DNA of 32,000 nucleotides from Candidatus Methanoperedens sp. (GTDB lineage Archaea; Halobacteriota; Methanosarcinia; Methanosarcinales; Methanoperedenaceae), in NCBI GenBank assembly GCA_027460535.1, contig JAPZAR010000031.1, positions 30,001 to 62,000 of the forward strand. Direction: 5' to 3'. Below are positions 2,762-26,545 of this stretch, one piece after another (within the stretch, counting starts at the first letter, position 1; every line of letters begins with the position of its first letter). Made by a program: the position numbers and the translations under genes. The notes beneath the pieces are model-generated. The model worked only from the letters and a program-made list of their open reading frames with translations. It was not told where the DNA came from and searched no databases.

Positions 2762-2913
2762 GGGAAATCCCATTATTTAAATTTAAGGCGCCAGGATGTG
2801 CCGGACGACCTCATGTTTTGGGCCCTCATCCACAAGATACAGGCCTCGAAGCCCCTCATTTTGCCGTGCGATTTTTACTAAAATTAGTAAAGCTCTCTTC
2901 GCTACTTTTATTA

Positions 2914-3675
2914 ATGGAAAGACTAATCAAACATCAGATGAAGCTCGCGGAATCATCGGCTTTCAGGGTGGCAATTTTGGTGTCACCAGCCTTATTTATC
3001 CTGATCCTCACAGTAATGATTTCGTTAGTGACGGGGCATCCCCAAGGATTGTTCCTGTCCCGTTCAATCAGGGCTATGCTGGTAAGATTTGTTCTGGTTA
3101 CGATTATATTCATAGCACCTGTTTTGATATTGCCCAGACTTCTTGCTCTGGTGGTGAACAGGGCGAAGAATGAAGGGCGATTCGGACAGTTTGTCAAGGC
3201 CGCATCAGACCCCTATCCAAAATTGAGCAAGCTTGATGCGTGGGTTATCAGACCACTGCAAGGTATCGGTCTATCTATGATCTTTGCTGAGAGACTGGTG
3301 AATTTATTAGAGTTCCTTCCGGTCCGCCTGGTTCTCTTCTTTATGGGCAGTGCATTAGTTTCCCTTTTTCTCTCAGTGGTTTGGGGGTTGGATGATTTAG
3401 GCATCAGGATCTACAGCAGAAGAACGGGTGAAGTATATATGGCTGGCAGAAGCATTGGCACAGTCCTGCCTTTGATCGGTGGTGCAATCGGAATATCCAG
3501 CTTGTTTCACCTTGGTTCTCCTCTAGATGCCTTAACTGAACTTTTCGAAATCGTTATGGTACTCTATCCATCGTACTTGTTCTTCGTTATTTTCCATCAG
3601 GAATTCATTAGAAAGCGAATGGCATCTTTATCGGAAAGACTTCTTTTGAAAAGAATAGAAACGAACTTAAGGTGA
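2914..3675 (+). CDS. hypothetical multi-pass membrane protein
   Basis: A long ORF with several hydrophobic helices (VAILVSPALFILILTVMISLV, FVLVTIIFIAPVLILPRLLALV, LVLFFMGSALVSLFLSVVWGL, VLPLIGGAIGISSLF). I recognised no family. The start is uncertain: TTG 2818, ATG 2914 or ATG 2938. Confidence 0.5.
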   Translation: MERLIKHQMKLAESSAFRVAILVSPALFILILTVMISLVTGHPQGLFLSRSIRAMLVRFVLVTIIFIAPVLILPRLLALVVNRAKNEGRFGQFVKAASDPYPKLSKLDAWVIRPLQGIGLSMIFAERLVNLLEFLPVRLVLFFMGSALVSLFLSVVWGLDDLGIRIYSRRTGEVYMAGRSIGTVLPLIGGAIGISSLFHLGSPLDALTELFEIVMVLYPSYLFFVIFHQEFIRKRMASLSERLLLKRIETNLR

Positions 3676-3909: not shown

Positions 3910-4635
3910 CTAAAACACTCTTTCAACTTTTGTTTTTGTATAATAATCAAAGAATTTGATATAGCCCCTTTTCCTGAAAAATAACACTCCGATCAGGAAA
4001 TCCAGCGGAAGCAAAAATACTTTCCCGATATTCCTTGTAGCACTTTCTAGAATTGTGATTTTATCGCCATTTGCCTTTACTACCCGGATGTTCATAACAT
4101 ATTTTCCAATCGTCTGGCCATTATAGGCTTCCATAATTACAAAAGAAGCATATGCAAATTGAAGGGCCAATTGAAGATATATTATGACAAGGAAAGTGTG
4201 GACATCAAATTTTAGCCCATTGCTAAATGCAAAGAAAAGGGCCACACCCACAAACAAGAATAGTGCGAAATCTATGAATGATGCTACAGCTCTTCTCACC
4301 AATGTTTGAGCAGAAAAGGTATTGTTCCCGTCATTTTTGATTATTTCCTTCGCATCTTTCCATAATCTTGCATCAACTTCCTGGAGCATACCGTGGGTAA
4401 TTTTCCCGTACTCTGAAAGTCTGTAATTCTTTTTCTCGGTAAGTTCAATGAAACCTTTCATCTTCCTTAAATGAAAATTCAGGTTCCCTTCCTCTATATT
4501 CAGTGTGTGCAGGATCTCTGTGTACGACATCTCTATGTTTTCATGAAGAAGAGATATTATTTCTGCCCTGATTTCATGAGAAAGAACTTTAAAAAACTCT
4601 ACTGTCTTTAGTTCTTTTATTTGTTCAATTGTCAT
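3910..4635 (-). CDS. ArsR-type winged-helix domain fused to RDD-family membrane domain
   Basis: The N-terminus FFKVLSHEIRAEIISLLHENIEMSYTEILHTLNIEEGNLNFHLRKMKGFIELTEKKNYRLSEYG looks like an ArsR/SmtB-like wHTH. The C-terminus RRAVASFIDFALFLFVGV...NGQTIGKYVMNIRVV...ATRNIGKVFLLPLDFLIG has the RDD-domain pattern with TM helices. Confidence 0.7.
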   Translation of the reverse strand: MTIEQIKELKTVEFFKVLSHEIRAEIISLLHENIEMSYTEILHTLNIEEGNLNFHLRKMKGFIELTEKKNYRLSEYGKITHGMLQEVDARLWKDAKEIIKNDGNNTFSAQTLVRRAVASFIDFALFLFVGVALFFAFSNGLKFDVHTFLVIIYLQLALQFAYASFVIMEAYNGQTIGKYVMNIRVVKANGDKITILESATRNIGKVFLLPLDFLIGVLFFRKRGYIKFFDYYTKTKVERVF

Positions 4636-4834
4636 TTTGTGATTAGTACGCCTTATTTTATCGTTATAGCCTTTAATCTTTATGTTTAATAATTAATTTT
4701 CTTCCTGTGCTGCAAAAACATTTGTTTTGGAGATTTTATTTTTGTTCCTGATACACAATTATTTTTTTTCTTGAATAATTATAAATATGGTGAATCCTAA
4801 TGAATGAAAATGGCTTTTAGCCAAGAGGTATGAT

Positions 4835-5713
4835 ATGAAGATACGAAACCCAGTTTTTAGTTTAGCAATATTAGCGATGATGACGACCCTCTTCATCGGG
4901 GCCGTTATGGCACAAGAAGCGGGCCCGGCTCTGAACGGAAATGCTCTTATGATGAAGGGATGGATGGATTATTCAGAATGGTTCGTGATTGTTACGCTTT
5001 TTCCTACCATAATAATGATGCTCTTTATCGCGCTCAGCCTTCATATCGCCAGACCCATGGTCTTACGATATCTAAACAGGATGACTCTCCGGCTCGGTGC
5101 TGATTTACTATGGGAGGGATGGATAATAGGAAGAGATGTTTTAATACTCTCCGCTGTTGGTCTTTTAGGGGTAATGATCGTTCCAAGGGTACAGTCTGAT
5201 TGGAACACTGGCGTTTTTATACCGGCTTTCGTGCTTGGTATCATAACGCTGGTGTACAAGCTTGCCACTGATACGGATGCGAACAAGACCAAATACATGG
5301 TCGCAACGGGGCTTACGGCTCTGACACTTGTCGCTGTACTGGTTCCATATTCAATCGGACCGCTCTGGGAATCAAAAGGCTCCGACTTTTTTATGAGCAC
5401 ATATTTAATTCCTTTATCGAATGCAGATACAATTAAGGATGTAAAAACTGCAATGGACGATGCCGTAAATGCAGCGCAAAAGGGAGACAATTCAACTGCC
5501 CTCACTAAAGCACAGGAAGCCGCTGCAGCCCATGATAGACTGGGAGACAGTTTGAAGGCATGGGACTCCGCGAAATCTTCGCAGATCGATGATGCATTTA
5601 ATGCCCTGACGGATGCCGCCAAGAAAGGCGATGTTGCAGGACTGGAGGCTGCTCAAAATACAATCAACCAGATATTAAATGAATATGAAGCGACACTTGG
5701 TGTGTTGGGATGA
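4835..5713 (+). CDS. membrane protein with signal peptide, ~4-5 TM helices and an Ala/Asp/Lys-rich helical C-terminal domain
   Basis: The N-terminus MKIRNPVFSLAILAMMTTLFIGAVMAQEA is signal-like. Hydrophobic helices follow, then the tail DTIKDVKTAMDDAVNAAQKGDNSTALTKAQEAAAAHDRLGDSLKAWDSAK...DAAKKGDVAGLEAAQNTINQIL. GAGGT lies upstream of the ATG. It is the first gene of a same-strand cluster with the ferredoxin, FrhB-like and cytochrome genes. Confidence 0.6.
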   Translation: MKIRNPVFSLAILAMMTTLFIGAVMAQEAGPALNGNALMMKGWMDYSEWFVIVTLFPTIIMMLFIALSLHIARPMVLRYLNRMTLRLGADLLWEGWIIGRDVLILSAVGLLGVMIVPRVQSDWNTGVFIPAFVLGIITLVYKLATDTDANKTKYMVATGLTALTLVAVLVPYSIGPLWESKGSDFFMSTYLIPLSNADTIKDVKTAMDDAVNAAQKGDNSTALTKAQEAAAAHDRLGDSLKAWDSAKSSQIDDAFNALTDAAKKGDVAGLEAAQNTINQILNEYEATLGVLG

Positions 5714-5764
5714 AACATCCACTTTCCGAAGATGACCTCTTAAGGTCACTTCTGGAGGATTTGT

Positions 5765-6013
5765 ATGCCCAGATATAACGTATATGTCAACCAGTCCCAG
5801 TGCTTCGCCTGCGGCATATGCGAGGACATGTGTCCCCGCAGGGTGTTCAGGTTAAAACCCACGGATTTTAAGGGGCCCGAGTATGAAGAAAGGATCCCTC
5901 AGTGGATGGGGACGATCACAGAGGTGGTCGCCGAGGACATGTGTTTTGGCTGCCGGCTATGTGAGAACCAGTGTCCTGTGGGGATAATCGAAATAACCAA
6001 AAGGGAGGTCTAA
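5765..6013 (+). CDS. 2x[4Fe-4S] ferredoxin
   Basis: Two canonical CxxCxxCxxxCP motifs are present: CFACGICEDMCP and CFGCRLCENQCP. GGAGG lies upstream of the ATG. Confidence 0.9.
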   Translation: MPRYNVYVNQSQCFACGICEDMCPRRVFRLKPTDFKGPEYEERIPQWMGTITEVVAEDMCFGCRLCENQCPVGIIEITKREV

Positions 6014-6016
6014 AAA

Positions 6017-7204
6017 ATGTATCTAGACATTGAAAAACATGCTGACAGCAGGCTCGTAAAACCCGTTGCACGGGAATGCTGTGTTTACTGTGGCGCGTGC
6101 GTGTGCGTGAACCCAAGCCCCGGCGTAGGTTTTGAAAACGGGGAGCTGGTCTTCGATGAAGATAGCATCATGTTCGATAAAGACCTGCTGGTCTGCCCGG
6201 TCATAAACAGCAACCACTCAACAACATACCCCAAACCTCCTGTGGCAAAAGGTCAGACCGTGGATGAGCTTCTAGGTCCCTATCTTGAAATTTGTTCTAC
6301 GAAAAGTACGGATGAGAAAGTTCTGAAAAAAGCACAGATCGGAGGTACTGTTACCTCTCTGCTTCTACAGGGGATGAAGGATGAGGTCATAGATTCAGCC
6401 CTCCTTGTCGATAAAGACAAAGGATGGATCGGAAAACCCAGACTTGCCACAACACCTGAAGAAATCCTCGAATCCGCAGGGACCAAGCTTTCAGAGGCAT
6501 CTGTTCTCACCTGCTGGCGGGATGCGATCAAAGCGGGATTTAAGAAGCTTGCCATAGTGGGCATGCCCTGTGTAACCATAGCAGAGCACCTCATTGACGG
6601 ATCCCCTGATTTCAAAGAGTTTGGTGACGTACATAAGCTGAAAATAGGAATATTCTGCATGGAGGCTTTCAATTACCGCGGGCTCTTCACGGAATTTCTG
6701 AAGGATAACCAGAAAATAAAACCATCCAATATCCAGAAAGTAGATGTAAAAGGCAAGATGATAATCCAAGAAATAACGGTTGAGGATAAGATTGCAGTAC
6801 ATACCTATAGCTTAAAAGAACTCCATAAATACGGCCTGCTTGGCTGCCTTCCCTGCCATGATTATGCTGCTGAATATGCTGATATCTCAATAGGGTCTGT
6901 GGGAAGCGAAGATGGCTGGAATACCACGATTGTCAGGACTGAACTTGGGAAAAAATTATTGGATTCGGCAGTGGCATCAGGGCTTCTGGCAAAAAAAGAA
7001 TTGAAAGACCTCGAACATCTGAGAAAAGTAGCCGCGCTTAAAAAGGGATTAAAAATCGGTGAGAAAACAAGAGAACCACCATCAAAAGTAACCAGGGACT
7101 GGATTGTCGCTGAAACAGCAGTACAGGATTATACATATCCCGAAATTTTAAAGCCGATTATAAAAGAAATCGCCAAAGAGAAAGGATCACAGGCCCTTTG
7201 GTAA
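6017..7204 (+). CDS. coenzyme F420 hydrogenase/dehydrogenase beta-subunit family protein (FrhB/FdhB/FpoF-like)
   Basis: It has an N-terminal Cys cluster CVYCGACVCVNP, then GGTVTSLLLQGMKDEVIDSALLV, LAIVGMPCVTIAEHL, KIGIFCMEAF and CLPCHDYAAEYADISIGSVGSEDGWNTTIVRTELGKKLL. These are the characteristic FrhB N- and C-domain motifs. The start lies 3 nt after the ferredoxin stop and follows GGGAGG. Confidence 0.8.
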   Translation: MYLDIEKHADSRLVKPVARECCVYCGACVCVNPSPGVGFENGELVFDEDSIMFDKDLLVCPVINSNHSTTYPKPPVAKGQTVDELLGPYLEICSTKSTDEKVLKKAQIGGTVTSLLLQGMKDEVIDSALLVDKDKGWIGKPRLATTPEEILESAGTKLSEASVLTCWRDAIKAGFKKLAIVGMPCVTIAEHLIDGSPDFKEFGDVHKLKIGIFCMEAFNYRGLFTEFLKDNQKIKPSNIQKVDVKGKMIIQEITVEDKIAVHTYSLKELHKYGLLGCLPCHDYAAEYADISIGSVGSEDGWNTTIVRTELGKKLLDSAVASGLLAKKELKDLEHLRKVAALKKGLKIGEKTREPPSKVTRDWIVAETAVQDYTYPEILKPIIKEIAKEKGSQALW

Positions 7205-7287
7205 AGATAATGATATAATTTTGACAAGGCTTTTTATGGATTGAAAGATAAATTACATTTAGAGAAGCTGCCTAACGGGAGGATCGT

Positions 7288-8490
7288 ATGCGTGTAAAAG
7301 TAATATGTGGAGCTATAATCGGCTTAATGTTTATGTGGATAATTCCGATGGTGCAGGGCGCAGGGGAATTTCAGATCAGCTATTCCTGTGCCAATTGCCA
7401 TAAGGACAGGTATGATGAATGGTCGCGTTCGATGCATGCCCTGGCCGTAAGTGACCCGATATTCGAGGCAGAATACCTACGTGCTCTTCAATCCGACCCG
7501 AAATACAGTAGTTATTGTCTGACATGCCACTCCCCCACAACGCGGATAACCAACGATTTCAACCTGACTAAATCGATATCCGTTGAAGGTATTACCTGTA
7601 GTTTTTGCCATACAGTGACTGCGGTTGAGAATAATAATTATACGTTTAACCAGAACAACCCCATGCAGGGCCCCTATAAGGATTCAAAGACCGATGCACA
7701 TGCATCGACATACTCCGAATTGCATACAAAATCAGAGTTCTGTGCAGGATGCCATGATTTCGCGATCAACGGTGTGCCGATCTCACGGACATATACTGAA
7801 TGGAAAGAAGGCCCCTATGCAGCAGAGGGCAAGCAATGCCAGGACTGCCACATGGAGACAAAAAATGGGGTTGCAGCGAAGAACGGGACAATGCGGGATC
7901 AGGTCTACCAGCACTTCTGGTATGGCGGGCACACAGGGCAATTCTTACAAAATGCATTCCAGATAGAATCCATAGTCCAGAGGACTGGAAATAGGGTCAA
8001 AGTTACGCTCAATATCACAAACAATAATGTTGGTCACATGATTCCAAGCGGTTTACCCTCACGAAAGGTTGTCCTGGATTTTAAGGCAAGTGATGAGAAA
8101 GGGCAGGCGATATTCAGCGACCAGAGGATCTATACCAAGACACTTATAGACCAATATGGAAATGAAGTGGCAGATTTCTGGAAGGCAGCATCTATATCTA
8201 AGGATAATAGATTCAAGCCAAGAGAGAGCAGAGCTGAGATGTTCGAGTTTGATGTGCCGGACGGCACCGGCAAACTGGATACTCAGACGACCTTAACTTA
8301 TCAGTTAGAAGCTGAGATTATCACTATGGAACCTGAATCCATAAACGTAGAATTGGCAAATATAACCAATATCACGCAGTGGGGGACACCCGTGAAGGTA
8401 ACCCCAAAAGCGTCTGGCCCGGGATTGATCGCATCGATTACGTCTCTGACAGCGGCCGCTCTGTTATTGTGGAGAAGAAAAAAGCTTTAG
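7288..8490 (+). CDS. secreted pentaheme c-type cytochrome with C-terminal PGF-CTERM-like membrane anchor
   Basis: The signal peptide is MRVKVICGAIIGLMFMWIIPMVQGA. There are five CxxCH motifs: CANCH, CLTCH, CSFCH, CAGCH, CQDCH. The first sits in a C..CH....Y.EW..S.H context typical of the c554/NrfA-like multiheme family. The C-terminus is GPGLIASITSLTAAALLLWRRKKL. Confidence 0.85.
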   Translation: MRVKVICGAIIGLMFMWIIPMVQGAGEFQISYSCANCHKDRYDEWSRSMHALAVSDPIFEAEYLRALQSDPKYSSYCLTCHSPTTRITNDFNLTKSISVEGITCSFCHTVTAVENNNYTFNQNNPMQGPYKDSKTDAHASTYSELHTKSEFCAGCHDFAINGVPISRTYTEWKEGPYAAEGKQCQDCHMETKNGVAAKNGTMRDQVYQHFWYGGHTGQFLQNAFQIESIVQRTGNRVKVTLNITNNNVGHMIPSGLPSRKVVLDFKASDEKGQAIFSDQRIYTKTLIDQYGNEVADFWKAASISKDNRFKPRESRAEMFEFDVPDGTGKLDTQTTLTYQLEAEIITMEPESINVELANITNITQWGTPVKVTPKASGPGLIASITSLTAAALLLWRRKKL

Positions 8491-8566
8491 AGATCGAAAT
8501 GGGATAAGAACAATTCTCATTTCTGGAGCAGACTTCCAAGTCAATTAGCGGTATAAAAAAGAGGCT

Positions 8567-9157
8567 GTGGAAAAGATTTCCACCGATCTCCTGGGAGATA
8601 GTGGAACCGTTCAGGACAGCATGGAACTAAAACTGAATAAAGATGAATATACCGTTGGATATGCAAGGGTAAGTGGCGGAGCTCTAATTTTGACGAATTT
8701 CAGGCTCTTAATAGACCGCGGGTTCAAGGTATTCGGAAAAAAGACAAAATCAATCCAAATAAAAGATATCACTGATTTGAAATTTAATAAGAGCTTTTTA
8801 TTTGGAACAGGCATCGATATGAAATATATTGAAGAAAACAGGGAATATGCCGTTTTTATTGAATTTACGGTCTCAACAGAAGCTAAAGAGATCATGGATA
8901 AGATGCGCTCCCTGCAGAAAGGAGAGATTCTGGCGCCTTTTGATGTTCCAAAAGGAGAGATGGGAAGGATCTCATTGGAAGAAGCGGAGCAAATTGCGCT
9001 GAAATTCATGGGAAGCAGAGCCAAAAACCTTGAAGTTGATGAAATAAGACACATTGCAGGAGCATGGAATATTATCCTGTCGAATCAGGAAAAATATGCT
9101 GTTGTGGTTAGCGATGATGGGACAGTAGAAGCATGGAAAAAGCTAACTAAGATTTAA
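8567..9157 (+). CDS. hypothetical protein, PH/GRAM-like N-terminal part and PepSY-like C-terminal part
   Basis: GALILTNFRLLIDRG...IQIKDITDLKF resembles bacterial PH/GRAM-type domains. EEAEQIALKFMGSRAKNLEVDEIRHIAGAWNIILSNQEKYAVVVSDDGTVEAW resembles PepSY. The GTG start follows GAGG. The family assignment is weak. Confidence 0.45.
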   Translation: MEKISTDLLGDSGTVQDSMELKLNKDEYTVGYARVSGGALILTNFRLLIDRGFKVFGKKTKSIQIKDITDLKFNKSFLFGTGIDMKYIEENREYAVFIEFTVSTEAKEIMDKMRSLQKGEILAPFDVPKGEMGRISLEEAEQIALKFMGSRAKNLEVDEIRHIAGAWNIILSNQEKYAVVVSDDGTVEAWKKLTKI

Positions 9158-11807: not shown

Positions 11808-12488
11808 ATGATGGAAAATATAATGGAAATGGAAGATGTATGGAAAATTTATCGCATGGGTGAGTTTGATGTACCTGCGCTTGCGGGAATAGACCTGGCC
11901 ATCAAGGCAGGTGAGTTCGTGGCAATAACAGGACCAAGCGGATGCGGTAAGTCAACGATGCTAAATATGGTTGGCTGCATGGACATGCCCACAAAAGGCA
12001 GGGTGCTGCTTCAAGGCAGGGACATATCAGAATTTAACAGCAATGAGCTTGCGCGCACAAGAGGGAAAAAAATCGGATTTGTATTCCAGACGTTCAATCT
12101 GTATCCTACCCTTACAACACTGGAAAACATTCAGCTCCCGATGAGGATCCATGAATTTCCTCAGAGCGATATAGAGGAGACGTCAAGAAAACTGCTAGCT
12201 ACTGTTGGTTTATCTGAACGTGGAGGTCATTTTCCTTCCCAGTTATCAGGCGGACAGCAGCAGAGAGTTGCAGTAGCAAGATCACTCTCCACAGGTCCTT
12301 CCATTCTACTTGCAGACGAGCCTACAGGGAATCTGGATACAAAATCAGGAAGCGAAATAATGGATGTTTTCAAACGCTTGAACAGCGAGGGATTAACTAT
12401 TGTAATGATAACGCACGACATGAGGATTGCAGGATATGCAGGAAGAGTTGTTAAGATGCTTGATGGAAAAATTATAGGTGGAACATGA
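11808..12488 (+). CDS. ABC transporter ATP-binding protein, MacB/LolD-type (cassette 1)
   Basis: Walker A is GPSGCGKST, the Q-loop is FVFQ, the signature is LSGGQQQRVAVARSL, Walker B is ILLADEPTGNLD, and the H-loop is ITHD. Confidence 0.92.
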   Translation: MMENIMEMEDVWKIYRMGEFDVPALAGIDLAIKAGEFVAITGPSGCGKSTMLNMVGCMDMPTKGRVLLQGRDISEFNSNELARTRGKKIGFVFQTFNLYPTLTTLENIQLPMRIHEFPQSDIEETSRKLLATVGLSERGGHFPSQLSGGQQQRVAVARSLSTGPSILLADEPTGNLDTKSGSEIMDVFKRLNSEGLTIVMITHDMRIAGYAGRVVKMLDGKIIGGT

Positions 12489-13681
12489 ATAAATTCAATT
12501 TAATTTTGATAGTCGTTTCAACAGTATTGTTATCAATGGTCGCATCTGCTCAATCAAATTATCTTGTGACTGAAAGCGCACCCGTTTTTCCAGGAGATAC
12601 GACCTATGTCTATGTGCCGATACAGAATATGGGGTTCGGTACGTTCATGGAAGATGTATCGGCCAGACTGGAGCCCAAAGATAATGCTTCAGCCAATTCA
12701 GTAACGATCCTTGATGATGCGTATTCATTGGGAACTATAAACAATTGGGGAGACCAGAGAACTGCAAAATTCAGGATCCACATAAATCCTGATGCCACGG
12801 AAGGAGAGTATTATTTCAATGTTTATATTACCTACAAGGGCCAGCAAATGAATAGCGGTACGCAACAAACTCCGGTAACAACCAAGCTGGAGGACCAGAT
12901 ATTAACTATTAAGGGGAAGCCCTTGATAGTGCTGCTCAATTCAACGCTTGGAACCATAGCACCGATGAGCATTAATAAGGAGACTCTGCAATTCAAAAAT
13001 ACAGGCACAGGCACACTACAGAGCGCCGTGGCTGGAATAGACCTTACAGGAACGAATTCAGCGTTTTCCATTCTTGGCGCAGGGACTCTGTTTTCCCTCG
13101 GCAACCTGAAGGCAGGAGATGAGGCAGATATTACATTTGATCTGGCCGTAGATATTGCGGCCCATCCTGGTGTATATAATCTTCCTATAACAATTACAGG
13201 ACTGAACAATTATTCCTCCGATAATTTTGTTGGACTGGTTGTCGCAGGGACAACTAATTTTGAGATAAGTTACCAGGAAACTCTGGGCTCTTTTTCGCTA
13301 AATGTCGCCAACGTAGGGATAAGTCCTGCCAGTGCAGTGACAGTAACCCTTCCGCGACAAAAGAACTTCTCTTCAACAGGGAGCAGTTCTTCTGTGCTTG
13401 GGAATTTAAATCCGGGTGATTACACATCAGCCATATTCCAGATTGCAAAAATACCGGGTGCTGGCAACGGTCTTGAGGTCTACATACAATATACCGACAC
13501 AAGCGGACAGAGACAATCGATTACAAAGTATCTTCCTGTGGAATTATCCCAGTCTGGCACACAAACCAGGTCAGCAAGCACAAATTATACAACATGGTTA
13601 TTTGCAGCTATTGTTATACTGGCAATATACTGGCAGAGAAGAAAAATAACAACATATTTCCAGAAACAAAAAGGAAGGTGA
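12485..13681 (+). CDS. secreted three-domain Ig-like (CARDB / COG1361 'S-layer-like' type) protein with C-terminal TM anchor (cassette 1)
   Basis: The signal peptide is MNKFNLILIVVSTVLLSMVASAQS. Modules repeat, each ending in G(N/T)L..GD...F.I....A..G.Y (for example GNLKAGDEADITFDLAVDIAAHPGVYNLPITI and GNLNPGDYTSAIFQI). The C-terminal anchor is WLFAAIVILAIYWQRRK. There is an ATGA start/stop overlap with the ATPase gene. Confidence 0.7.
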   Translation: MNKFNLILIVVSTVLLSMVASAQSNYLVTESAPVFPGDTTYVYVPIQNMGFGTFMEDVSARLEPKDNASANSVTILDDAYSLGTINNWGDQRTAKFRIHINPDATEGEYYFNVYITYKGQQMNSGTQQTPVTTKLEDQILTIKGKPLIVLLNSTLGTIAPMSINKETLQFKNTGTGTLQSAVAGIDLTGTNSAFSILGAGTLFSLGNLKAGDEADITFDLAVDIAAHPGVYNLPITITGLNNYSSDNFVGLVVAGTTNFEISYQETLGSFSLNVANVGISPASAVTVTLPRQKNFSSTGSSSSVLGNLNPGDYTSAIFQIAKIPGAGNGLEVYIQYTDTSGQRQSITKYLPVELSQSGTQTRSASTNYTTWLFAAIVILAIYWQRRKITTYFQKQKGR

Positions 13682-13720
13682 GACCCTGTATTTAAACACG
13701 GGGACTGACGAGGACTAAAT

Positions 13721-14971
13721 ATGAAGACTTTTGACATTTTCAAATTATCCCTGAGCCATGTAAAAAAAAGCAAGATGCGAAGCTGGCTCACTATAATAGG
13801 TATTGTAATAGGCGTAGCCGCTGTCGTAGCTATAATTTCCATTGGCCAGGGAATGCAGGAGAGCGTGGCGGCTCGTCTGGGAAGCCTTGGAGCCGATCTG
13901 ATCACGGTCACTCCGGGTTTTTCACGGGCTTCAGGCGGGGGTTTTGAAGGGAGATCGGCTGGTTCCGGAGGTAGCATTAACCTCACTGATAAAGACGTGA
14001 ATGTGATTAAGCAGGTGCCGGGCGTGCTCTATGTAAACGGCATGGTATCTGGCCGGGCGGATATGATATTGGGTACTGAGAAGACCTCCGTATCTATCAG
14101 CGGTATTGATACCGCGGTCTGGCGTTCCATGGTCACCACGCAGCTTGAAGCAGGCAGATATCTTCAGCCGGGCGATTCAAACGCTGTAGTCATTGGCTAC
14201 TCTTTAGCGCACGAAACTTTTTTACAGCCGATCACCCTGAACAGGCCGGTTACAATAGGGGGCAAGACTTTCAAAGTCGTTGGAGTATTCGTACAATCAG
14301 GTGGAGGTTTTGGAGGGGGAAGTGATAATGCAGTATATATGTCGGATGATTTTGCCAGGGATGTGATAACCACGAATGTATCCAGGAATACATTTACGTC
14401 GATTACGGTAAAGGTAACGGACCCCGCGCTGGCGAGTAAAATAGCCGATGATATTGTAGCAAAACTTATGCCGTCGAGGCACGTCAATCCGAGAACCAGA
14501 GATTTTACAGTCACGGCGTTCGCAACAATACAACAACAGATAACCAGTGTCGTCCAGACCATATCGCTGTTCCTTGCTTCGATAGCGGCAGTTTCGCTTC
14601 TGGTAGGAGCTGTGGGTATAGCGAATACCATGTTCATGTCTGTTATGGAACGCACAAGGCAGATAGGACTGCTCAAGGCATTGGGCGCTACGGATAATGA
14701 AGTAATGAAACTTTTCCTTATAGAATCAGGATTATTTGGGTTCGTAGGAGGGGTGCTGGGAATAATTTTTGGCGTACTGATATCCCTCATAATATCCGTA
14801 GTTGGTCTTAGGGCAATAGGACCGGGCGGGACAATGAACGCAGTCGTCTCACCAGAGCTTCTTATTTTTGCACTTGGATTCTCCGTATTCGTAGGCGTGG
14901 TCTCAGGCGTCGTGCCTGCAAGGACAGCCGCAAAGATGAACCCTGTGGATGCCCTGCGTTTTGAGCAATAA
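13721..14971 (+). CDS. ABC transporter permease, MacB/FtsX family (cassette 1)
   Basis: KMRSWLTIIGIVIGVAAVVAIISIGQG is the MacB N-terminal TM. A large extracytoplasmic domain follows. The C-terminal FtsX domain is LLVGAVGIANTMFMSVMERTRQIGLLKALGAT...PARTAAKMNPVDALRFE. Confidence 0.9.
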   Translation: MKTFDIFKLSLSHVKKSKMRSWLTIIGIVIGVAAVVAIISIGQGMQESVAARLGSLGADLITVTPGFSRASGGGFEGRSAGSGGSINLTDKDVNVIKQVPGVLYVNGMVSGRADMILGTEKTSVSISGIDTAVWRSMVTTQLEAGRYLQPGDSNAVVIGYSLAHETFLQPITLNRPVTIGGKTFKVVGVFVQSGGGFGGGSDNAVYMSDDFARDVITTNVSRNTFTSITVKVTDPALASKIADDIVAKLMPSRHVNPRTRDFTVTAFATIQQQITSVVQTISLFLASIAAVSLLVGAVGIANTMFMSVMERTRQIGLLKALGATDNEVMKLFLIESGLFGFVGGVLGIIFGVLISLIISVVGLRAIGPGGTMNAVVSPELLIFALGFSVFVGVVSGVVPARTAAKMNPVDALRFEQ

Positions 14972-18933: not shown

Positions 18934-19446
18934 ATGAATAGGAAAGGCGTAGTAGTGTTACTTTTGTTAACATTAGCAATTCTTTCAGGAGCACCGGAGT
19001 CTTTCGCACGGCTCCAGTATCTTACAAATCTCACCGCAGTGTATAGCGCTGGTTCATGCGGCACCTGCCATGTAATAGCTTCAGGCAGTGGAATGCGCAA
19101 CTCCAGCGGGATGTTCGGACAGAACAATTCTAACGGAACTTATGTTCCACGCAACACCAGCAGAACACCGGGGATGCGCCGCTCTAACGGAACGTTTGGA
19201 ATGCGTTCCTCAAACAGAACGTTGCCGCTTAACTCGTACGGAACGTTATTTGCTAACCAGCCTGACCACGCTACCGATCCCAGTGCAGCCCTGATGGCTA
19301 TAGGGCAGCCACCTGCAGCAAACCCACAAGATAGCCCCGCAGATACAGCCGTGACAGGGACTAAAGCGGCTCCAGGGTTCGGAATTGTGTTATCCCTGGT
19401 CGGATTATTTGCATTGGCTCTTCTGGCAAGGCGGAAAAATAAATGA
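18934..19446 (+). CDS. secreted monoheme (single CxxCH) protein with Asn/Gly/Met/Arg repeats and a canonical PGF-CTERM archaeosortase signal
   Basis: The signal is MNRKGVVVLLLLTLAILSGAPESFA, with one CGTCH motif. Repeats are SGMRNSSGMFGQNNSNGT and PGMRRSNGTFGMRSSNRT, with many N-x-S/T sequons. The C-terminus is APGFGIVLSLVGLFALALLARRKNK, that is PGF plus a TM plus a basic tail. AGGAG lies upstream of the ATG. Confidence 0.8.
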   Translation: MNRKGVVVLLLLTLAILSGAPESFARLQYLTNLTAVYSAGSCGTCHVIASGSGMRNSSGMFGQNNSNGTYVPRNTSRTPGMRRSNGTFGMRSSNRTLPLNSYGTLFANQPDHATDPSAALMAIGQPPAANPQDSPADTAVTGTKAAPGFGIVLSLVGLFALALLARRKNK

Positions 19447-19506: not shown

Positions 19507-20214
19507 ATGATGGAAAATATAATGGAACTGAAGGACGTCTGGAAAATCTACAAGATGGGCGAAGTGGAAGTGCCGGCTCTGAAAGGAATAAGCGTTGAAA
19601 TAAAGAAGGGAGACTTTGTGGCTATTATAGGTGCCTCGGGAAGCGGCAAATCTACAATGATGAACCTGATAGGCTGCCTGGATATTCCTTCCAGAGGAAG
19701 CTTATATCTCCGATCGCAGGACATCAGCACATTAAGCGAATCAGACCTTGCCTCATTCAGGGGTAAGACTATCGGTTTTATTTTCCAGCAATACAACCTG
19801 ATCCAGTCGATGTCTGCTTTTGAGAACGTGATGCTTCCACTGGAATTCTTAGAATATGATGACCAAAAAGCAGCAAACAGGGCAAGAGAAATACTGACAC
19901 TGGTGGGGTTGAGTGATAAGATGCATCATCGTCCGACACAGCTTTCAGGTGGTCAGCAGCAGAGAGTGTCCATAGCAAGATGCCTTGCTGGCGACCCTGA
20001 GATAATCCTTGCGGATGAACCGACCGGAGCACTCGACAGTGTTACAGGCAGAGAAGTCCTGGATATGCTTCACAGATTGTGGGAAGAGCATGGAAAAACG
20101 ATCATAATGGTCACTCACGACCTTAATCTGGCTAAATATGCTCACACAACAATTGAACTGAAAGACGGAGAGATTTTGAAAATATCTGAAAATAACGAGG
20201 TAAATAAAAAATGA
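19507..20214 (+). CDS. ABC transporter ATP-binding protein, MacB/LolD-type (cassette 2)
   Basis: Walker A is GASGSGKST, the signature is LSGGQQQRVSIARCL, Walker B is IILADEPTGALD, and the H-loop is VTHD. The first 21 nt (ATGATGGAAAATATAATGGAA) are identical to the cassette 1 ATPase gene. Confidence 0.92.
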   Translation: MMENIMELKDVWKIYKMGEVEVPALKGISVEIKKGDFVAIIGASGSGKSTMMNLIGCLDIPSRGSLYLRSQDISTLSESDLASFRGKTIGFIFQQYNLIQSMSAFENVMLPLEFLEYDDQKAANRAREILTLVGLSDKMHHRPTQLSGGQQQRVSIARCLAGDPEIILADEPTGALDSVTGREVLDMLHRLWEEHGKTIIMVTHDLNLAKYAHTTIELKDGEILKISENNEVNKK

Positions 20215-21572
20215 AAAAAATAATGTTTCCGGTTTTGATAATACTGGTATTGACAGCTTACACACCTGCAGTTTATGCAGATTTAGCAGATCTAGCAGGC
20301 TCATCAGTACTATCAGTAAGCCTTGCAAACTCTGACCCTAATCCTGCTATTGCAGGAAATACCGTGGATGTTCGTATAGGTATCCAGAATATCGGGGGTA
20401 CGACTACTAGCGATCTTATGATGGAAGTTATACCACAGTATCCTTTTGAGCTTGTACCAGGTGAAAACGCAGTTCAGGATGTAGGAATAGTTCAACCCTA
20501 TCAGAAGAGTGATCCTACTGTAAATATAAAAGTCATACTGTACCATATGCAGATAAACAGGAATGCTCCGGCAGGTAGTTACCAATTCAAAGTTAAGTAT
20601 TATGAGGCGGGTTCAACCGATGTGACCCAGCAAAGCCTGTCCATTGATGTGAAGAGCAAAGAAAACGCTGAAGTGATCCACATTGGCCAGACGATGCTCG
20701 TTCCGGGAAGGCAAAGCAGCTTAATATTCACGATCAATAATGTCGGGAATGCACCCCTCCGGGATCTGACTTTCAGCTGGGCGAATGATGAAAAGATAGT
20801 TCTCCCAGTCGGGAGTGACAATACCAAATATATCAGGTACATCGATATTGGCAATGGCACTGACCTGGAATACCAGGTGATGGCAGATACTAATGCAGTG
20901 CCGGGATTATACAAACTGAACTTATACCTGACTTATGAAGATTCAATGACAAACCAAACCAAAACAATAAGCACATTTGCCGGGGTGTATGTTGGCGGAG
21001 GAACGGATTTCGATGTGGCATACTCAGATAATGCGAACAGCCAGATGTCTTTCAGCGTTGCCAATATAGGAAGCAACCCAGCAAACTCGGTATCTGTGGT
21101 TATTCCCGATCAGCCGGTCTGGAGTGTAAGCGGCCCAAATTCAGTCATCATAGGTAATCTGAACAAAGGAGACTATACGGTTGCAAGCTTCAAATTGCAA
21201 TCCTCAATGAGTAATATGACTTCCCAGAATAGAGCCTCCAGAAACAATACCAATTTCCAGGGAAGGCAAAGTCCAACAAATATCTCATCCGATACAGTGC
21301 TCATACAAATAGCCTATACCGATACCATGGGAGTAAGAAATGTCGTTGAAAAACAGGTCAAAATCGGATTTCAAAATATGGCATCTCCAAGCGCTATGCA
21401 GGGACGAAGAGGAGCCACACAACCAACAAGTGTACTCTCTAATAACATGCTGTATTTCTTCGGCATAATAGTGCTCGTTGGCGCAGTTGTAGTCCACAGG
21501 AAATACAAGAGCCGCAAACTGCTTGATCCTGGTTTCAAAATGAAGGATTTATTCAAACGCGAGAAGAAATGA
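20211..21572 (+). CDS. secreted three-domain Ig-like (CARDB / COG1361-type) protein with C-terminal TM anchor (cassette 2)
   Basis: The signal is MKKIMFPVLIILVLTAYTPAVYA. Its modules repeat: NPAIAGNTVDVRIGIQNIGG...APAGSYQFKVKY; SSLIFTINNVGNAPL...VPGLYKLNLYLTY; FSVANIGSNPANSVSVVIP...GNLNKGDYTVASFKL. The C-terminal TM is MLYFFGIIVLVGAVVVHRKYK. It has the same ATGA overlap with the ATPase gene as in cassette 1. Confidence 0.7.
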   Translation: MKKIMFPVLIILVLTAYTPAVYADLADLAGSSVLSVSLANSDPNPAIAGNTVDVRIGIQNIGGTTTSDLMMEVIPQYPFELVPGENAVQDVGIVQPYQKSDPTVNIKVILYHMQINRNAPAGSYQFKVKYYEAGSTDVTQQSLSIDVKSKENAEVIHIGQTMLVPGRQSSLIFTINNVGNAPLRDLTFSWANDEKIVLPVGSDNTKYIRYIDIGNGTDLEYQVMADTNAVPGLYKLNLYLTYEDSMTNQTKTISTFAGVYVGGGTDFDVAYSDNANSQMSFSVANIGSNPANSVSVVIPDQPVWSVSGPNSVIIGNLNKGDYTVASFKLQSSMSNMTSQNRASRNNTNFQGRQSPTNISSDTVLIQIAYTDTMGVRNVVEKQVKIGFQNMASPSAMQGRRGATQPTSVLSNNMLYFFGIIVLVGAVVVHRKYKSRKLLDPGFKMKDLFKREKK

Positions 21573-21591
21573 TAATTTCCTGCGGGTCAAA

Positions 21592-22824
21592 ATGAAACTA
21601 AATAAATGTTTCAAACATGCGTTTAACATGGTACTTCACAGCAAGCTGCGAAGCTGGCTGACTATAACGGGCATAGTCATAGGTGTTGCTGCGGTTATTG
21701 CGATTGTTTCGATAGGAGACGGGATGCAGCAAACGCTGAATGCACAATTGAACGCTCTTGGCGGAGACATCGTTACAATCACAGCCGGCGCTGAACGGGG
21801 TGGCGGCATGTATGGTATGAGAGGCGGCGGGGGAGGAGGAGGCCAGGCAACGACCAAAGAAATAGTACTGGGCAGAAGTGACCTCCAGGCATTGAAGGGT
21901 ATACCTGATATTGCTCTGATCGACACAAATATCAGAGAGAGTGTGAATATATCCTATCTTGGCAAAACAGGGAAAGTATCTGTAACAGGCGTTGACCAGA
22001 AAGTATGGTCTCAAATTACTACTACTACTATACAAACTGGCAGGATGCTTGATTCTGCTGACCAGAACGTCATAGTTATCGGGGGAAATCTCGCATCCTC
22101 TTATTTTTCCCAGCCTGTCGGGATTAATAAGATGGTAACGATAAACGCCGCTGCTTTCAGGGTTGTGGGAATTCTTAATGACCAGACCACCAGCGTTTAC
22201 ATGCCGATCCAGATGGCATACCAGGTGATGCCAGACAAGACGAATGATATCTACGACACACTTGTTGTTAAGATCAGGAATCAGGACCAGTTAGATTTTG
22301 TAATCACGGAAATCCAGAATAAACTTATGATTTCAAGACATGTCACTCAAAATACAATGGATTTTTCAGTCACTTCAAGGAAGGAAATGCAGCAGGCCAG
22401 AGCGGCTACGATGAGTTCAATGAGCACATTTCTGCTTGCAATTGCAGCGGTTTCATTGATTGTGGGTTCCATCGGTATTGCAAATACCATGTTCACTTCC
22501 GTCCTTGAAAAGACTAAGGAAATCGGGATAATGAAAGCTATCGGCGCGCGCAATCCCGACATTTTGCTCATATTCCTGTTCAATGCAGGATTTATCGGAC
22601 TCGTTGGTGGAATAATTGGCGTAATCCTCGGAACAATGCTTTCTGGCTTCATGCCTGCGCTTATGGGGGGAGGTCTTCCCATGGCAAGAGGGGGCACAAT
22701 AGTGACATTGAACTCAATAATGATGGCATTATCAGTATCGGTCATAGTAGGAATTCTTGCAGGAATAATACCTGCGTACCAGGCATCGAAATTGAGGCCT
22801 GTTGATGCTCTGAGATACGAATAA
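21592..22824 (+). CDS. ABC transporter permease, MacB/FtsX family (cassette 2)
   Basis: KLRSWLTITGIVIGVAAVIAIVSIGDG is followed by an extracytoplasmic domain. The FtsX domain is LIVGSIGIANTMFTSVLEKTKEIGIMKAIGAR...PAYQASKLRPVDALRYE. Confidence 0.9.
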   Translation: MKLNKCFKHAFNMVLHSKLRSWLTITGIVIGVAAVIAIVSIGDGMQQTLNAQLNALGGDIVTITAGAERGGGMYGMRGGGGGGGQATTKEIVLGRSDLQALKGIPDIALIDTNIRESVNISYLGKTGKVSVTGVDQKVWSQITTTTIQTGRMLDSADQNVIVIGGNLASSYFSQPVGINKMVTINAAAFRVVGILNDQTTSVYMPIQMAYQVMPDKTNDIYDTLVVKIRNQDQLDFVITEIQNKLMISRHVTQNTMDFSVTSRKEMQQARAATMSSMSTFLLAIAAVSLIVGSIGIANTMFTSVLEKTKEIGIMKAIGARNPDILLIFLFNAGFIGLVGGIIGVILGTMLSGFMPALMGGGLPMARGGTIVTLNSIMMALSVSVIVGILAGIIPAYQASKLRPVDALRYE

Positions 22825-24760: not shown

Positions 24761-26545
24761 ATGAGTGGCAGAAGAAACCTGAACAAAAATGACATAATTG
24801 CATTATCCGCAATCATATTAATCAGTCTTATCGCTTTGGTATCCTATGCGATAATAAATCAATCAAAAGAGCTTCCTCCAACATCAGCAGCGAAAAACAC
24901 AACAACTGGATCTCTTTTAGAATCATCAACTCCTGACCAGCTAAATCCAATAAATAAATTGCAGACGCAGCAAAATATATGCGCAGAAGCCGGCGAAACC
25001 CCCCTTGTAACTCAGCACAATGACAACAATCGCTCAGGTGCAAATCTGAACGAGGTCATCTTGAACACTTCTAACGTGAATCCGGCCCAGTTTGGCAAAT
25101 TGTACACACTCCAGGTGGATGGCCAGATCTACGCTCAACCTCTGTATCTATGCAATGTGAATATACCCAACCAGGGCATTCACAATGTAATATACATAGC
25201 CACAATGCACAACACTGTTTATGCCTTTGATGCTGATGACCCGAACGCCACTCTCCCGCTCTGGATGGCCTCTCTGGGGCCCTCTATACCTCTCCCGGAT
25301 CCAAACATAGGTCCACAGGAGGGGTATGTGGATATTACAGGAGAGGTAGGCATCGTCAGCACCCCGTACATCTCCCCGGAAAATAACACCATATATGTCG
25401 TTTCATCCAATAAAGATCCAAACAGTTCTGATGCTGGCTCATATTCTCATTGGCTTCATGCACTGGATATCAGTACTGGAGCAGAGAAATTGGGCGGACC
25501 TGTTAAGATAAGTGCAATTTATCCTGGAAATGGAGATGGTAGTATGGACGGAATTTTAAACTTCACCAGTCACAGACAGCTCCAGCGTTCAGCCCTGCTA
25601 TTATCCAATGGCATGATATACATAGCCTTTTCATCATATGATGATGTAACGCCATCCCACGGCTGGGTGATGTCATATTCCGCTAATACACTGAATCAGA
25701 CCGCTGTTTACGTTACAACACCGGACGATGTGCCGATCGGACCACAACTTCCAGGATTGGGGTCTATCTGGCAGGGCGGGCAGGGGCCGGCTGCAGATAG
25801 TTCAGGCAATATTTATTTCATTACCGGTAATGGCGATTTTAATGGCTTTTCTAATCCCATGCCAAGTGATCTGGGGGACAGTATCGTGAAGCTCACGCCA
25901 GAATTGAAGTTAGTTGACTGGTTCTCTCCTCACAATAATACCGAACTCAATGAGAACGATTTGGATTTTGGTTCTGGAGGAGCATTATTGATCCCGGGTA
26001 CTGACCTGCTGGTAGGCGGCGGAAAAGAAGCAAAGCTCTTCCTGATAGACAGGAATAATATGGGGCACTTCAATCCCAACAATGATAGTCAGATAGTTCA
26101 ACCTCCTTTTTCGGTTATCACGAAGTCAGATCCGCAGGATAACCACGAGCTTTTTGGAGGGCCTGTTTATTGGGATAGCCCCAATGGTTCCCTGGTCTAT
26201 GTATCACCCTCAGCTGCTCACGTGAAAGCTTATAGATTCGCTGCAGGCGTTTTCCAGCCTACCACTCCGGTTTCTGAGAGTAACATTACCTCTGTATCGG
26301 GTGGATGGATGTCAATATCAGCCAACGGCAGCATTCCTGGAACCGGGATCTTGTGGGTATCCGAGCTGAATGTACTCCATGCCTTCGATGCCTCAAATCT
26401 ACAAAATGAACTGTGGAATAGCGAGATGAATCCTCGTGACGATATTGGCGAGGCAGCGAAATTCTGTCCCCCCACTATCGCGAACGGCAAGGTTTACATG
26501 GCAAGCTTTTCTGGTGGAGTAGCAGTATATGGCCTCTTATCCTAA
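24761..26545 (+). CDS. membrane-anchored PQQ-like beta-propeller repeat protein
   Basis: The N-terminal TM is IIALSAIILISLIALVSYAI. QHNDNNRSGANLNEVILNTSNVNPAQFGKLYTLQVDGQIYAQPLYL...HNVIYIATMHNTVYAFDADD is a typical start of PQQ-like or BamB-like propellers. Repeated hydrophobic-G-D/N blades follow. Confidence 0.6.
   Translation: MSGRRNLNKNDIIALSAIILISLIALVSYAIINQSKELPPTSAAKNTTTGSLLESSTPDQLNPINKLQTQQNICAEAGETPLVTQHNDNNRSGANLNEVILNTSNVNPAQFGKLYTLQVDGQIYAQPLYLCNVNIPNQGIHNVIYIATMHNTVYAFDADDPNATLPLWMASLGPSIPLPDPNIGPQEGYVDITGEVGIVSTPYISPENNTIYVVSSNKDPNSSDAGSYSHWLHALDISTGAEKLGGPVKISAIYPGNGDGSMDGILNFTSHRQLQRSALLLSNGMIYIAFSSYDDVTPSHGWVMSYSANTLNQTAVYVTTPDDVPIGPQLPGLGSIWQGGQGPAADSSGNIYFITGNGDFNGFSNPMPSDLGDSIVKLTPELKLVDWFSPHNNTELNENDLDFGSGGALLIPGTDLLVGGGKEAKLFLIDRNNMGHFNPNNDSQIVQPPFSVITKSDPQDNHELFGGPVYWDSPNGSLVYVSPSAAHVKAYRFAAGVFQPTTPVSESNITSVSGGWMSISANGSIPGTGILWVSELNVLHAFDASNLQNELWNSEMNPRDDIGEAAKFCPPTIANGKVYMASFSGGVAVYGLLS

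Follow-up and report, generated by a model that had tools for sequence, protein, structure and literature searches.

A conserved membrane protein, ferredoxin and FrhB gene unit of Methanoperedens and its possible role as a small F420H2:menaquinone oxidoreductase

We analysed a 32,000-nucleotide (nt) stretch of a Candidatus Methanoperedens sp. assembly (contig JAPZAR010000031.1, positions 30,001 to 62,000; hereafter the window) and focused on four consecutive genes, here named g1 to g4, which encode a membrane protein, a small ferredoxin, a protein of the FrhB family and a multiheme c-type cytochrome (Table 1). A previous interpretation of this DNA (the sequence-only reading) had described four same-strand open reading frames (ORFs) with short spacers and strong Shine-Dalgarno sites, and had identified their products as a tailed membrane protein, a 2x[4Fe-4S] ferredoxin, an FrhB family member and an anchored pentaheme cytochrome. 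Our ORF calls reproduced the coordinates, the spacers (51, 3 and 83 nt for g1/g2, g2/g3 and g3/g4, respectively) and the Shine-Dalgarno sites, which lie 5-8 nt before the starts, and all four gene identities proved correct.

Table 1. Features of the g1-g4 locus and its immediate surroundings, with positions in the window.
Feature	Coordinates	Strand	Length (aa)	Shine-Dalgarno	Basis
ArsR-RDD gene: ArsR-type winged helix (DUF7347/HTH_20) fused to RDD membrane domain	3910-4635	-			Pfam
Divergent intergenic region, AT-rich; TATA-like TATAAATA and g1 Shine-Dalgarno	4636-4834	.			read from sequence
g1: membrane protein	4835-5713	+	292	AGAGGT	ORF call
g2: 2x[4Fe-4S] ferredoxin	5765-6013	+	82	GGAGGA	Fer4 Pfam matches
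g3: FrhB-family F420-binding flavoprotein	6017-7204	+	395	GGGAGGT	Pfam, PDB alignments
g4: exported pentaheme c-type cytochrome, c552/ExtKL-like, PGF-CTERM-like anchor	7288-8490	+	400	GGGAGGA	motifs, PDB, NCBIfam
g5: cytoplasmic protein	8621-9157 (ORF open from GTG 8567)	+	178		homolog starts

The locus was compared across 22 related loci, namely the window, 12 loci of GTDB species-representative genomes, contigs with divergent homologs and one metagenome locus (individual loci are labelled L). The order g1-g2-g3 is kept in all 22, wherever the available sequence covers it. The three genes overlap by 4 nt in L013, the most divergent lineage (g3 71% and g1 43% identical to the window), the 3-nt g2-g3 spacer of the window being an overlap there, and g2 and g3 are 1 nt apart in L014-19. 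Orthologs of g3 form a discrete set, ranging from 94% down to 71% identity, with the next relatives (Asgard and methanogen FrhB-type proteins) at 37% or less; g3 is 84-90% identical to the proteins of the 12 species-representative loci. It is highly probable that g1, g2 and g3 form one functional unit.

The cytochrome gene behaves differently from these three. It is found in 14 loci, all belonging to a crown clade in which g3 is at least 84% identical to the window, and the recurrence of the order g1-g2-g3-g4 in 14 Methanoperedens loci, at protein identities of 62-94%, means that this arrangement is not due to chance. Both basal lineages, L013 and L014-17, lack the gene, as do two lineages of the crown, L018/19 and L004. 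In L013, g3 is followed by a gene for a 174-aa His-rich, secreted, C-terminally anchored protein (L013:10387-10911); in L014-17, g5 begins 9 nt after g3 with no cytochrome between; in L018/19, a 191-aa homolog of the His-rich protein (L018:8198-8773) is followed by g5; and in L004, a ribbon-helix-helix gene, a nucleotidyltransferase gene and a type I restriction enzyme gene come after g3. On a rough neighbour-joining tree, poorly resolved inside the crown clade, the cytochrome-less basal lineages split off first. The most economical explanation is an insertion of g4 between g3 and g5 in a single Methanoperedens clade, and g4 appears to be a lineage-specific accessory gene, not a core partner. 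The g3-g4 spacer, which in the window contains an AT-rich TATA-like stretch and a T-run over its 83 nt, is just 17-24 nt long in L020 and L001; given this difference among lineages, co-transcription of g3 and g4 may vary by lineage. The His-rich protein (174-191 aa) is itself beta-rich, carries HLHLHI... and HYHTNYTF motifs, has no Pfam match and may bind metal.

The g3 product matches the Pfam families FrhB_FdhB_N (59.2 bits, cut-off 22) and FrhB_FdhB_C (117.8 bits, cut-off 23.3). It consists of an N-terminal single-cluster ferredoxin-like extension (Cys 22, 25, 28 and 60), an FrhB core that has flavin adenine dinucleotide (FAD) as well as a [4Fe-4S] cluster held via Cys185, Cys214, Cys277 and Cys280, and a 50-aa C-terminal extension; in alignments with 9r51_B and 3zfs_C the core cysteines line up with identical residues, and so do the GG-x-VT, GTK and SVGS-x-DGW stretches. 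Against the PDB, FrhB ranks first (E 1.3e-43), followed by 8RIU chain B (1e-38), FwdI (8RJA), Fsr and FdhB. The 8riu_B alignment spans residues 15-343 and so takes in the N-terminal ferredoxin-like extension, and FdhB chains are the weakest FrhB-family matches (E 1e-10 to 5e-6). Scores lie under every NCBIfam cut-off, both for the FrhB subfamily (PRK09325, 218.8 vs 269; TIGR03289, 198.6 vs 331.5) and for FpoF (NF040616, 130 vs 475; PRK09326, 130.5 vs 444). We therefore rejected g3 as the FrhB of an FrhABG hydrogenase (under the cut-offs, no linked frhA or frhG), as FpoF/FqoF (under the cut-offs, no fpo or fqo genes in the window) and as FdhB (weakest similarity class, no fdhA in the window). 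More broadly, no frhA/G, fdhA, hdr, fqo, hydrogenase or molybdopterin subunit gene and no Nuo/Fpo-type membrane or connecting subunit gene lies within the 32 kb window, and the flanks of the 22 related loci hold no hydrogenase subunit gene. The sequence-only reading had taken g3 for a stand-alone input-type FrhB and had named an FdhB with a distant fdhA as the contrary case; the best matches, to FrhB and to the F420-reductase subunit of the Ethanoperedens carbon monoxide dehydrogenase (CODH), agree with the former, and the weak match to FdhB, with no fdhA in the window, speaks against the latter. FrhB-like subunits of the Ethanoperedens CODH and Fwd have been shown experimentally to be plug-in F420 modules attached via an N-terminal ferredoxin domain (PMC11493965), and passages on the Methanoperedens nitroreducens MPEBLZ genome report an frhB gene and no frhABG.

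The g2 product contains eight cysteines that form two complete CxxCxxCxxxCP motifs. Beyond these eight, which are invariant in the alignment of its relatives, W47 and M48 are also invariant and lie in an insert between the two cluster motifs. Neither g2 nor g3 has transmembrane (TM) segments.

The g1 product has, by hydropathy, four TM helices preceded by an N-terminal signal/anchor segment. Four Arg/Lys residues lie in the loop after TM1, and the 120-residue C-terminal tail is net acidic, charges which fit the positive-inside rule if the tail is extracytoplasmic, as the sequence-only reading had proposed. An AlphaFold model built with 17 homologs (predicted local distance difference test score, pLDDT, 78) shows a TM bundle followed by a helical-bundle tail, and the tail is predicted to be an extracytoplasmic four-helix bundle that is specific to Methanoperedens. 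No Pfam family matches g1, and the best NCBIfam score is noise (Mce family, 15.7 bits vs a cut-off of 140.5). We found 76 homologs, and all those with a source name come from Methanoperedens or uncultured archaea. In the Methanoperedens alignment the most conserved parts are two predicted cytoplasmic loops, H70-D101 and K142-Y154, which are near invariant (H70-ARPMV-x-RYLNRMTLRLGAD-x-LWE-x-WIIGRD101 and K142-L-xx-DTDA-x-K-x-KY154), and the tail is variable with insertions and deletions. Across the wider family described below, the cytoplasmic face carries the signature HxxRP[YM]...LR[LF]GADxWW...RD...KLxxDxD, in which R73, L85, R86, A89, D90, W93 and R100 are invariant and G88, D101, P117, D146 and D148 nearly so; all of these conserved residues lie at or near the cytoplasmic face except P117, which is in a short outer loop. 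His70, at the cytoplasmic end of TM1, is 90-100% conserved in 139 aligned non-Methanoperedens sequences and is replaced by Gln in several more divergent family members.

In the sequence-only reading, which had suggested modelling it and searching for cofactor sites, g1 was the only candidate for a trans-membrane electron link. The protein has no Cys, its one conserved His sits at the cytoplasmic end of TM1, and in the alignments neither the outer face nor the tail has a conserved His, Met or Cys. Lacking both cysteines and outer-face ligands, g1 cannot by itself carry electrons across the membrane, and the proposal that it acts as such a link found no support. By analogy, one heme b at most could be held between two g1 subunits near the cytoplasmic face, where it would not span the membrane. 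A heme-binding tail was considered and rejected: Pfam assigns the tail alone to no family, with cytochrome b562 at noise level (E 0.78), and conservation does not extend to the Met/His ligands of b562. A fold search of g1 against the PDB returned nothing at E <=0.001; its top matches (G-protein-coupled receptor-BRIL fusions, cytochrome c' and PsbQ) reflect only the shape of a TM bundle plus four-helix bundle. The best match of the g1 family profile to PDB sequences has an E of 0.6. By these comparisons, g1 is a member of an undescribed membrane-protein family.

This family extends well beyond Methanoperedens. An exhaustive profile search found 91 remote g1-like proteins, mostly of 90-340 aa, with the same cytoplasmic-face motifs; in the ten that were scanned, no Pfam family covers the motif region. 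A search of metagenomes with the pattern LR[LF]GAD[LIV][WL]W gave at least 544 confirmed g1-like loci, and a non-Methanoperedens g1-like protein searched by tblastn against 72,556 plasmids had no match. Neighbourhoods were analysed for the best 79 non-Methanoperedens loci, which have a median GC content of 57% and are presumed bacterial. Two tandem g1-like genes are present in 74 of the 79. Upstream sequence of 300 nt or more is available for 70 loci, and in 59 of these 70 (84%) the gene immediately upstream, on the same strand and at a median gap of 50 nt, encodes a 650-700 aa flavoprotein composed of an N-terminal 2x[4Fe-4S] domain, Fer4_20 and Pyr_redox_2, that is, a GltD/NfnB-type NAD(P)H flavoprotein; NCBI models give it generic names only, under cut-off. 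The N-terminal domain resembling g2 is in view for 42 of these 59 flavoproteins, and in three other lineages (L021, L023 and L091) a stand-alone g2-like ferredoxin gene directly follows the g1-like gene. The Trp-Met insert is common to g2, to the stand-alone ferredoxins beside remote g1-like genes and to the N-terminal domain of the GltD-like flavoproteins, a domain which by sequence is homologous to g2. The window shares both hallmarks of this arrangement, the cytoplasmic-face signature in g1 and an adjacent Trp-Met ferredoxin and flavoprotein, here g2 and FrhB.

The non-Methanoperedens three-gene units have no other steadily conserved neighbour and no recognisable extra catalytic gene. Being self-contained, they should have the acceptor site in their membrane subunits, for which a quinone is the simplest candidate. 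No genuine cytochrome c gene lies beside the g1-like genes of the 79 loci; six of six CxxCH-bearing ORFs that were inspected near such genes proved spurious. We also set aside three apparent Pyr_redox_2/g1-like fusions (P0171, P0160 and an ORF of L101), whose Arg/Pro/Gly-rich linkers resemble out-of-frame translation of high-GC DNA. A separate short metagenome contig (L024:1-1356) has a g1-like gene flanked by two genuine monoheme cytochrome c genes (CAACH and CAHCH), with no ferredoxin gene, and is the only case seen of a non-Methanoperedens g1-like gene beside cytochromes.

Such comparisons suggest that a g1-like membrane protein, a g2-like ferredoxin and a flavoprotein dehydrogenase make up an old and widespread module, in which the dehydrogenase head appears to be interchangeable, of the GltD-like NAD(P)H type in the presumed bacteria and of the FrhB (F420) type in Methanoperedens. 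An association of g2 and g3 with the membrane, on which the sequence-only reading depended, is well supported by comparative genomics, the g1-g2-g3 order being invariant and g1-like and g2-like genes being neighbours across domains. The two proteins g2 and g3 likely have g1 as their partner in the membrane.

The sequences themselves show the gene content, its conservation, the domain and cofactor motifs, the topology and the linkage of g1, g2 and a flavoprotein across domains. From these elements we infer a physical complex, a direction of electron flow and a quinone acceptor, as follows. F420H2 would be oxidised at the FAD of g3, and electrons would pass from there to the core [4Fe-4S] cluster of g3, to the single cluster of its N-terminal extension and on to the two clusters of g2, four [4Fe-4S] clusters in all (two in g3 and two in g2). 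The ferredoxin would dock on the near-invariant cytoplasmic loops of g1, which is probably dimeric and would serve both as membrane anchor and as the most likely site where a lipid-soluble acceptor, menaquinone in Methanoperedens, is reduced. Electron transfer from F420H2 to menaquinone is strongly downhill, and the enzyme would stand beside the large Fqo complex as NDH-2 stands beside complex I. The cytochrome g4, anchored at the cell surface, would be fed only indirectly, via the quinone pool and quinol:cytochrome c oxidoreductases, or may be functionally independent. Passages of one study report menaquinone use by Methanoperedens and the formation of F420H2 in its reverse methanogenesis (PMC7327174). 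Our proposal as a whole, a small, probably non-pumping membrane-bound F420H2:menaquinone oxidoreductase beside Fqo, has in our judgement a little short of an even chance of being right, and quinone as the acceptor is a tentative assignment that we hold somewhat more loosely still.

The g4 cytochrome also has homologs in other contexts. The protein begins with a signal peptide, contains five CxxCH motifs and ends in a tail made of GPGL, a hydrophobic helix and RRKKL. Exactly five CxxCH motifs are present in 76 of 76 Methanoperedens-type homologs, whose tails are PGF-CTERM-like with a true PGF in six of the 76; PF18204 does not match g4 at E <=0.01. The g4 protein matches PDB 5ZE8 in two stretches (4e-16), Pfam Cytochrome_C554 and, under cut-off, the NCBIfam ExtKL model (105.7 bits vs 250), and it probably belongs to a broad family of pentaheme cytochromes. 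A 66% identical homolog in M. nitroreducens ANME2D and in a 3.3 Mb Methanoperedens genome (L105-L107:5162-8227) divergently adjoins the exosortase-family genes Exosortase_EpsH and EpsI and lies near another cytochrome gene, with no FrhB module. Exosortase genes beside a g4 homolog fit archaeosortase processing of the PGF-CTERM-like tail. A 41% homolog in a Zixibacteria genome accompanies a molybdopterin oxidoreductase/NrfD complex. Finally, the contig L108 (3362-10394; also L109) is Borg-like, with 32.5% GC vs 46% for L014 of the same assembly and with every called gene on the same strand; its 57% homolog ends in a canonical PGF-CTERM and belongs to a cluster that includes another FrhB paralog. 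The gene order of this cluster is CuA-type cupredoxin, a 357-aa FrhB paralog (27% identical to g3), a polytopic NapH-like Fe-S membrane protein of 484 aa, cupredoxin, g4 homolog and octaheme cytochrome. The nar operon of M. nitroreducens is known to have an HCOII-NapH-HCOII triad, though no FrhB or cytochromes accompany it there (Arshad 2015). Judging by these contexts, g4-type cytochromes seem to be general outside carriers that have been recruited to several modules.

The ArsR-RDD gene (RDD 2.9e-15, DUF7347 6.2e-9) lies at 60-85% identity on the opposite strand directly 5' of g1 in every related locus with upstream sequence, save L020, and its product is a candidate regulator of the cluster. 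The intervening TATA-like TATAAATA at 4780-4787, about 48 nt before the g1 start, may belong to the g1 promoter; a bacterial sigma-70/terminator scan of the window is uninformative for an archaeon. At the other end of the cluster, g5 homologs (70-72% identical) begin with MELKL, matching ATG 8621 rather than GTG 8567, and ATG 8621 is most likely the true start. The gene is present in most related loci, directly after g3 in L014-17 and after the His-rich protein gene in L018, and is a frequent fifth member of the cluster. Its N-terminal domain has a weak bacterial PH-like match (bPH_3, E 0.0025, under cut-off), its C-terminal half resembles PepSY by eye, and TATAAAAAA at 8553-8561 may serve as its own promoter; an AlphaFold model made without an alignment was unusable (pLDDT 33.5).

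Several flanking genes vary more. Upstream in the window, nitroreductase-family and flavin-reductase-like genes (1326-2761) are followed by a membrane ORF (2818-3675); none of these is kept beside the cluster in other Methanoperedens loci, and we rejected them as cluster members. In L013, L018 and L019, metal-related genes that are absent from this position in the window lie 5' of the ArsR-RDD gene: a NicO-like permease gene and, in L018, CbtA/CbtB cobalt transporter, FeoA-like and ArsR HTH_5 regulator genes. Downstream, the window holds two paralogous three-gene sets (11808-14971 and 19507-22824), each encoding an ABC ATPase, a secreted CARDB-like protein and a MacB/FtsX-type permease; the set at 11808-14971 is kept 3' of the cluster in L002, L010 and L011 and is present in inverted order in L018. 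A small protein encoded at 18934-19446 carries a canonical PGF-CTERM signal (PF18204, E 3.8e-6), and the organism accordingly uses archaeosortase-type anchoring. A 594-aa ORF at 24761-26545 has no Pfam match.

Several points weigh against an F420H2:menaquinone oxidoreductase. Methanoperedens already has Fqo for the same reaction, and the physiological need for a second enzyme is argued by analogy. In g1, Pfam, NCBIfam, PDB profile and fold searches bring out neither a recognisable quinone-binding motif nor a known quinone-reactive family. The conserved His70 could ligate heme b between two subunits, which would alter the details. A quinone reductase acting purely at the cytoplasmic face does not account for the Methanoperedens-specific outside tail of g1, nor for the occupants of the slot after g3, which are invariably anchored extracytoplasmic proteins (the cytochrome or the His-rich one).

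The last two points bear on the idea with which the sequence-only reading had started, in which F420H2 or ferredoxin electrons pass via g2 and g3 to g1, across the membrane to g4 and on to extracellular acceptors. Its FrhB input module and the membrane association of g2 and g3 are supported; its use of the cytochrome as core partner and of g1 as a wire is not. The linkage to a multiheme cytochrome, taken there as a sign of electron export, loses its force with the absence of g4 from the basal lineages, L018/19 and L004 and with the occurrence of g4 homologs away from any FrhB module; the adjacency would here reflect a lineage-specific insertion and does not speak for a conduit. In g1 there is no basis for proposing a chain of cofactors across the membrane, and the 79 non-Methanoperedens loci have no genuine cytochrome c gene next to the g1-like genes. 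A four-gene conduit nevertheless draws on the position of g4 after g3 in 14 loci, with spacers down to 17-24 nt (L020, L001), on the four-helix tail, which could dock an outside partner, on the monoheme cytochrome c genes flanking the remote g1-like gene of L024, and on the Borg-like L108, where another FrhB paralog stands beside a g4 homolog with a NapH-like Fe-S membrane protein and cupredoxins. The occurrence of two different FrhB paralogs beside g4-type cytochromes in Methanoperedens-associated DNA keeps the export idea alive as a minority view, and we regard the conduit as unlikely. A related possibility, that g1 and the Trp-Met ferredoxin form a new widespread redox module to which outside additions in Methanoperedens allow F420H2 electrons to reach extracellular acceptors bypassing the quinone pool, is improbable in our estimate; if true, this quinone-independent route would represent an archaeal electron-export conduit of a new type.

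Three further explanations were considered. If g2 and g3 were a soluble ferredoxin:F420 oxidoreductase, like the free FpoF of Methanosarcina mazei, they would turn reduced ferredoxin back into F420H2, and g1 would serve only as a tether or be a neighbour that takes no part in electron transfer. Passages of the genome literature acknowledge that what becomes of reduced ferredoxin in Methanoperedens is an open point, for which FrhB or FqoF alone has been proposed (PMC4683180; PMC7327174), and neither g2 nor g3 has TM segments; however, the adjacency of g1-like and g2-like genes is kept from Methanoperedens to distant bacteria and other archaea with a different flavoprotein, the three genes overlap in L013, and the extreme constraint on the cytoplasmic face of g1 is needless for a passive tether or a chance neighbour, which together make a soluble enzyme improbable as well. 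A role in metal handling or redox sensing, with ArsR-controlled reducing power sent to the membrane for metal held by outside partners, would account for the divergent ArsR-RDD gene kept with the cluster, for the NicO-like, CbtA/CbtB and FeoA-like genes upstream in L013 and L018/19, for the His-rich secreted anchored protein in the slot after g3 in the same lineages and for the His/Asp/Glu-rich outside repeats of the remote g1-like protein P0191. Yet these metal-related neighbours are not kept in the window or in most loci, the non-Methanoperedens three-gene units have no such partners, and the same problem of moving electrons across the membrane remains; this is decidedly improbable. Lastly, g1-type subunits might conduct H+ or Na+ via an intramembrane Arg-Asp pair, coupled to electron transfer between ferredoxin and F420 or NAD(P) in either direction. 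Family-wide invariance of R100/D101, D90 and R86 in or next to TM2 would suit such a machine, as would the tandem paralogous g1-like subunits outside Methanoperedens, since tandem paralogous subunits also occur in RnfA/E and NqrD/E. But a gene for a second soluble substrate module is lacking, the charged residues could equally line a quinone or heme pocket, and to our knowledge a cofactor-less 4-TM protein has no precedent as a redox-driven pump, so that we consider energy coupling very unlikely.

If the g1-g2-g3 enzyme is indeed a quinone reductase, the g1/g2 module would be an unrecognised type of respiratory dehydrogenase in both domains. The pair represents a large family without a Pfam or NCBIfam model, abundant in environmental metagenomes, and offers a clear case in which NAD(P)H and F420 heads appear to have been swapped as modules. 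For Methanoperedens, the locus suggests that F420H2 has a second, small point of entry alongside Fqo, at a time when the electron path from F420H2 and ferredoxin to nitrate, iron and manganese in methane oxidisers is still mostly a genome-based model. Passages of the main genome papers on Methanoperedens and anaerobic methanotrophic archaea (ANME) do not mention the cluster; FrhB appears in them linked to Hdr and, as paralogs, to Pfor, CODH, NuoF-Trx and GltS, and five cytochrome clusters of the bc or NrfD type are described. Literature searches likewise gave no description of a module of a GltD-like protein with a membrane pair, nor of an FrhB-cytochrome cluster in Methanoperedens.

Comparison with known systems places each component. 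Like Thermochromatium tepidum c552 (PDB 5ZE8), to which it aligns in two stretches, g4 has five CxxCH motifs, and it matches the C-terminal part of ExtKL/MccSep; unlike these proteins, it carries an archaeal PGF-CTERM-like anchor, and g4 shows no evidence for selenocysteine. The menaquinone:cytochrome c oxidoreductase clusters of Methanoperedenaceae (groups 1-5), as described in passages of PMC7327174, also have a membrane protein gene beside Fe-S and multiheme cytochrome genes and are proposed to carry electrons out of the cell, but contain a b-type cytochrome or NrfD-like subunit and no F420 module. In contrast, g1 is neither a b-type cytochrome nor NrfD-like and lacks His ligands for two hemes, and g4 is dispensable.

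The closest counterparts of g3 are the CODH zeta subunit of Ethanoperedens thermophilum (8RIU chain B) and FwdI (8RJA), which also belong to the FrhB family and have an N-terminal ferredoxin-like domain (PMC11493965). In Ethanoperedens this domain docks onto an Fe-S partner, CODH or Fwd, whereas the partner of g3 would be a small ferredoxin with a membrane protein; the N-terminal domain of g3 has cysteines for one cluster and the Ethanoperedens counterpart for two; and g3 likely works in the direction of F420H2 oxidation whereas the Ethanoperedens modules reduce F420. FqoF/FpoF are members of the same superfamily with the same proposed job of feeding F420H2 electrons via Fe-S clusters to a membrane quinone. 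The membrane partner g1, however, is a 4-TM protein of an unrelated, undescribed family, and as it is unrelated to the Fqo/Fpo membrane subunits, proton pumping is not expected. In architecture only, the system resembles succinate:quinone and quinol:fumarate oxidoreductases, with a flavin dehydrogenase, an Fe-S chain and small membrane anchors. The SdhCD/FrdCD anchors bind quinone near the cytoplasmic face, with an optional heme ligated by one His per subunit, and the paired g1-like genes outside Methanoperedens, with one conserved His each, fit the SdhC/SdhD picture. Since g1 has no sequence or detectable fold relation to these anchors and the flavoprotein and Fe-S families differ, the likeness is one of analogy, not membership. 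By all these comparisons, the system is probably a membrane-bound flavin/Fe-S dehydrogenase built on an undescribed membrane protein and ferredoxin module.

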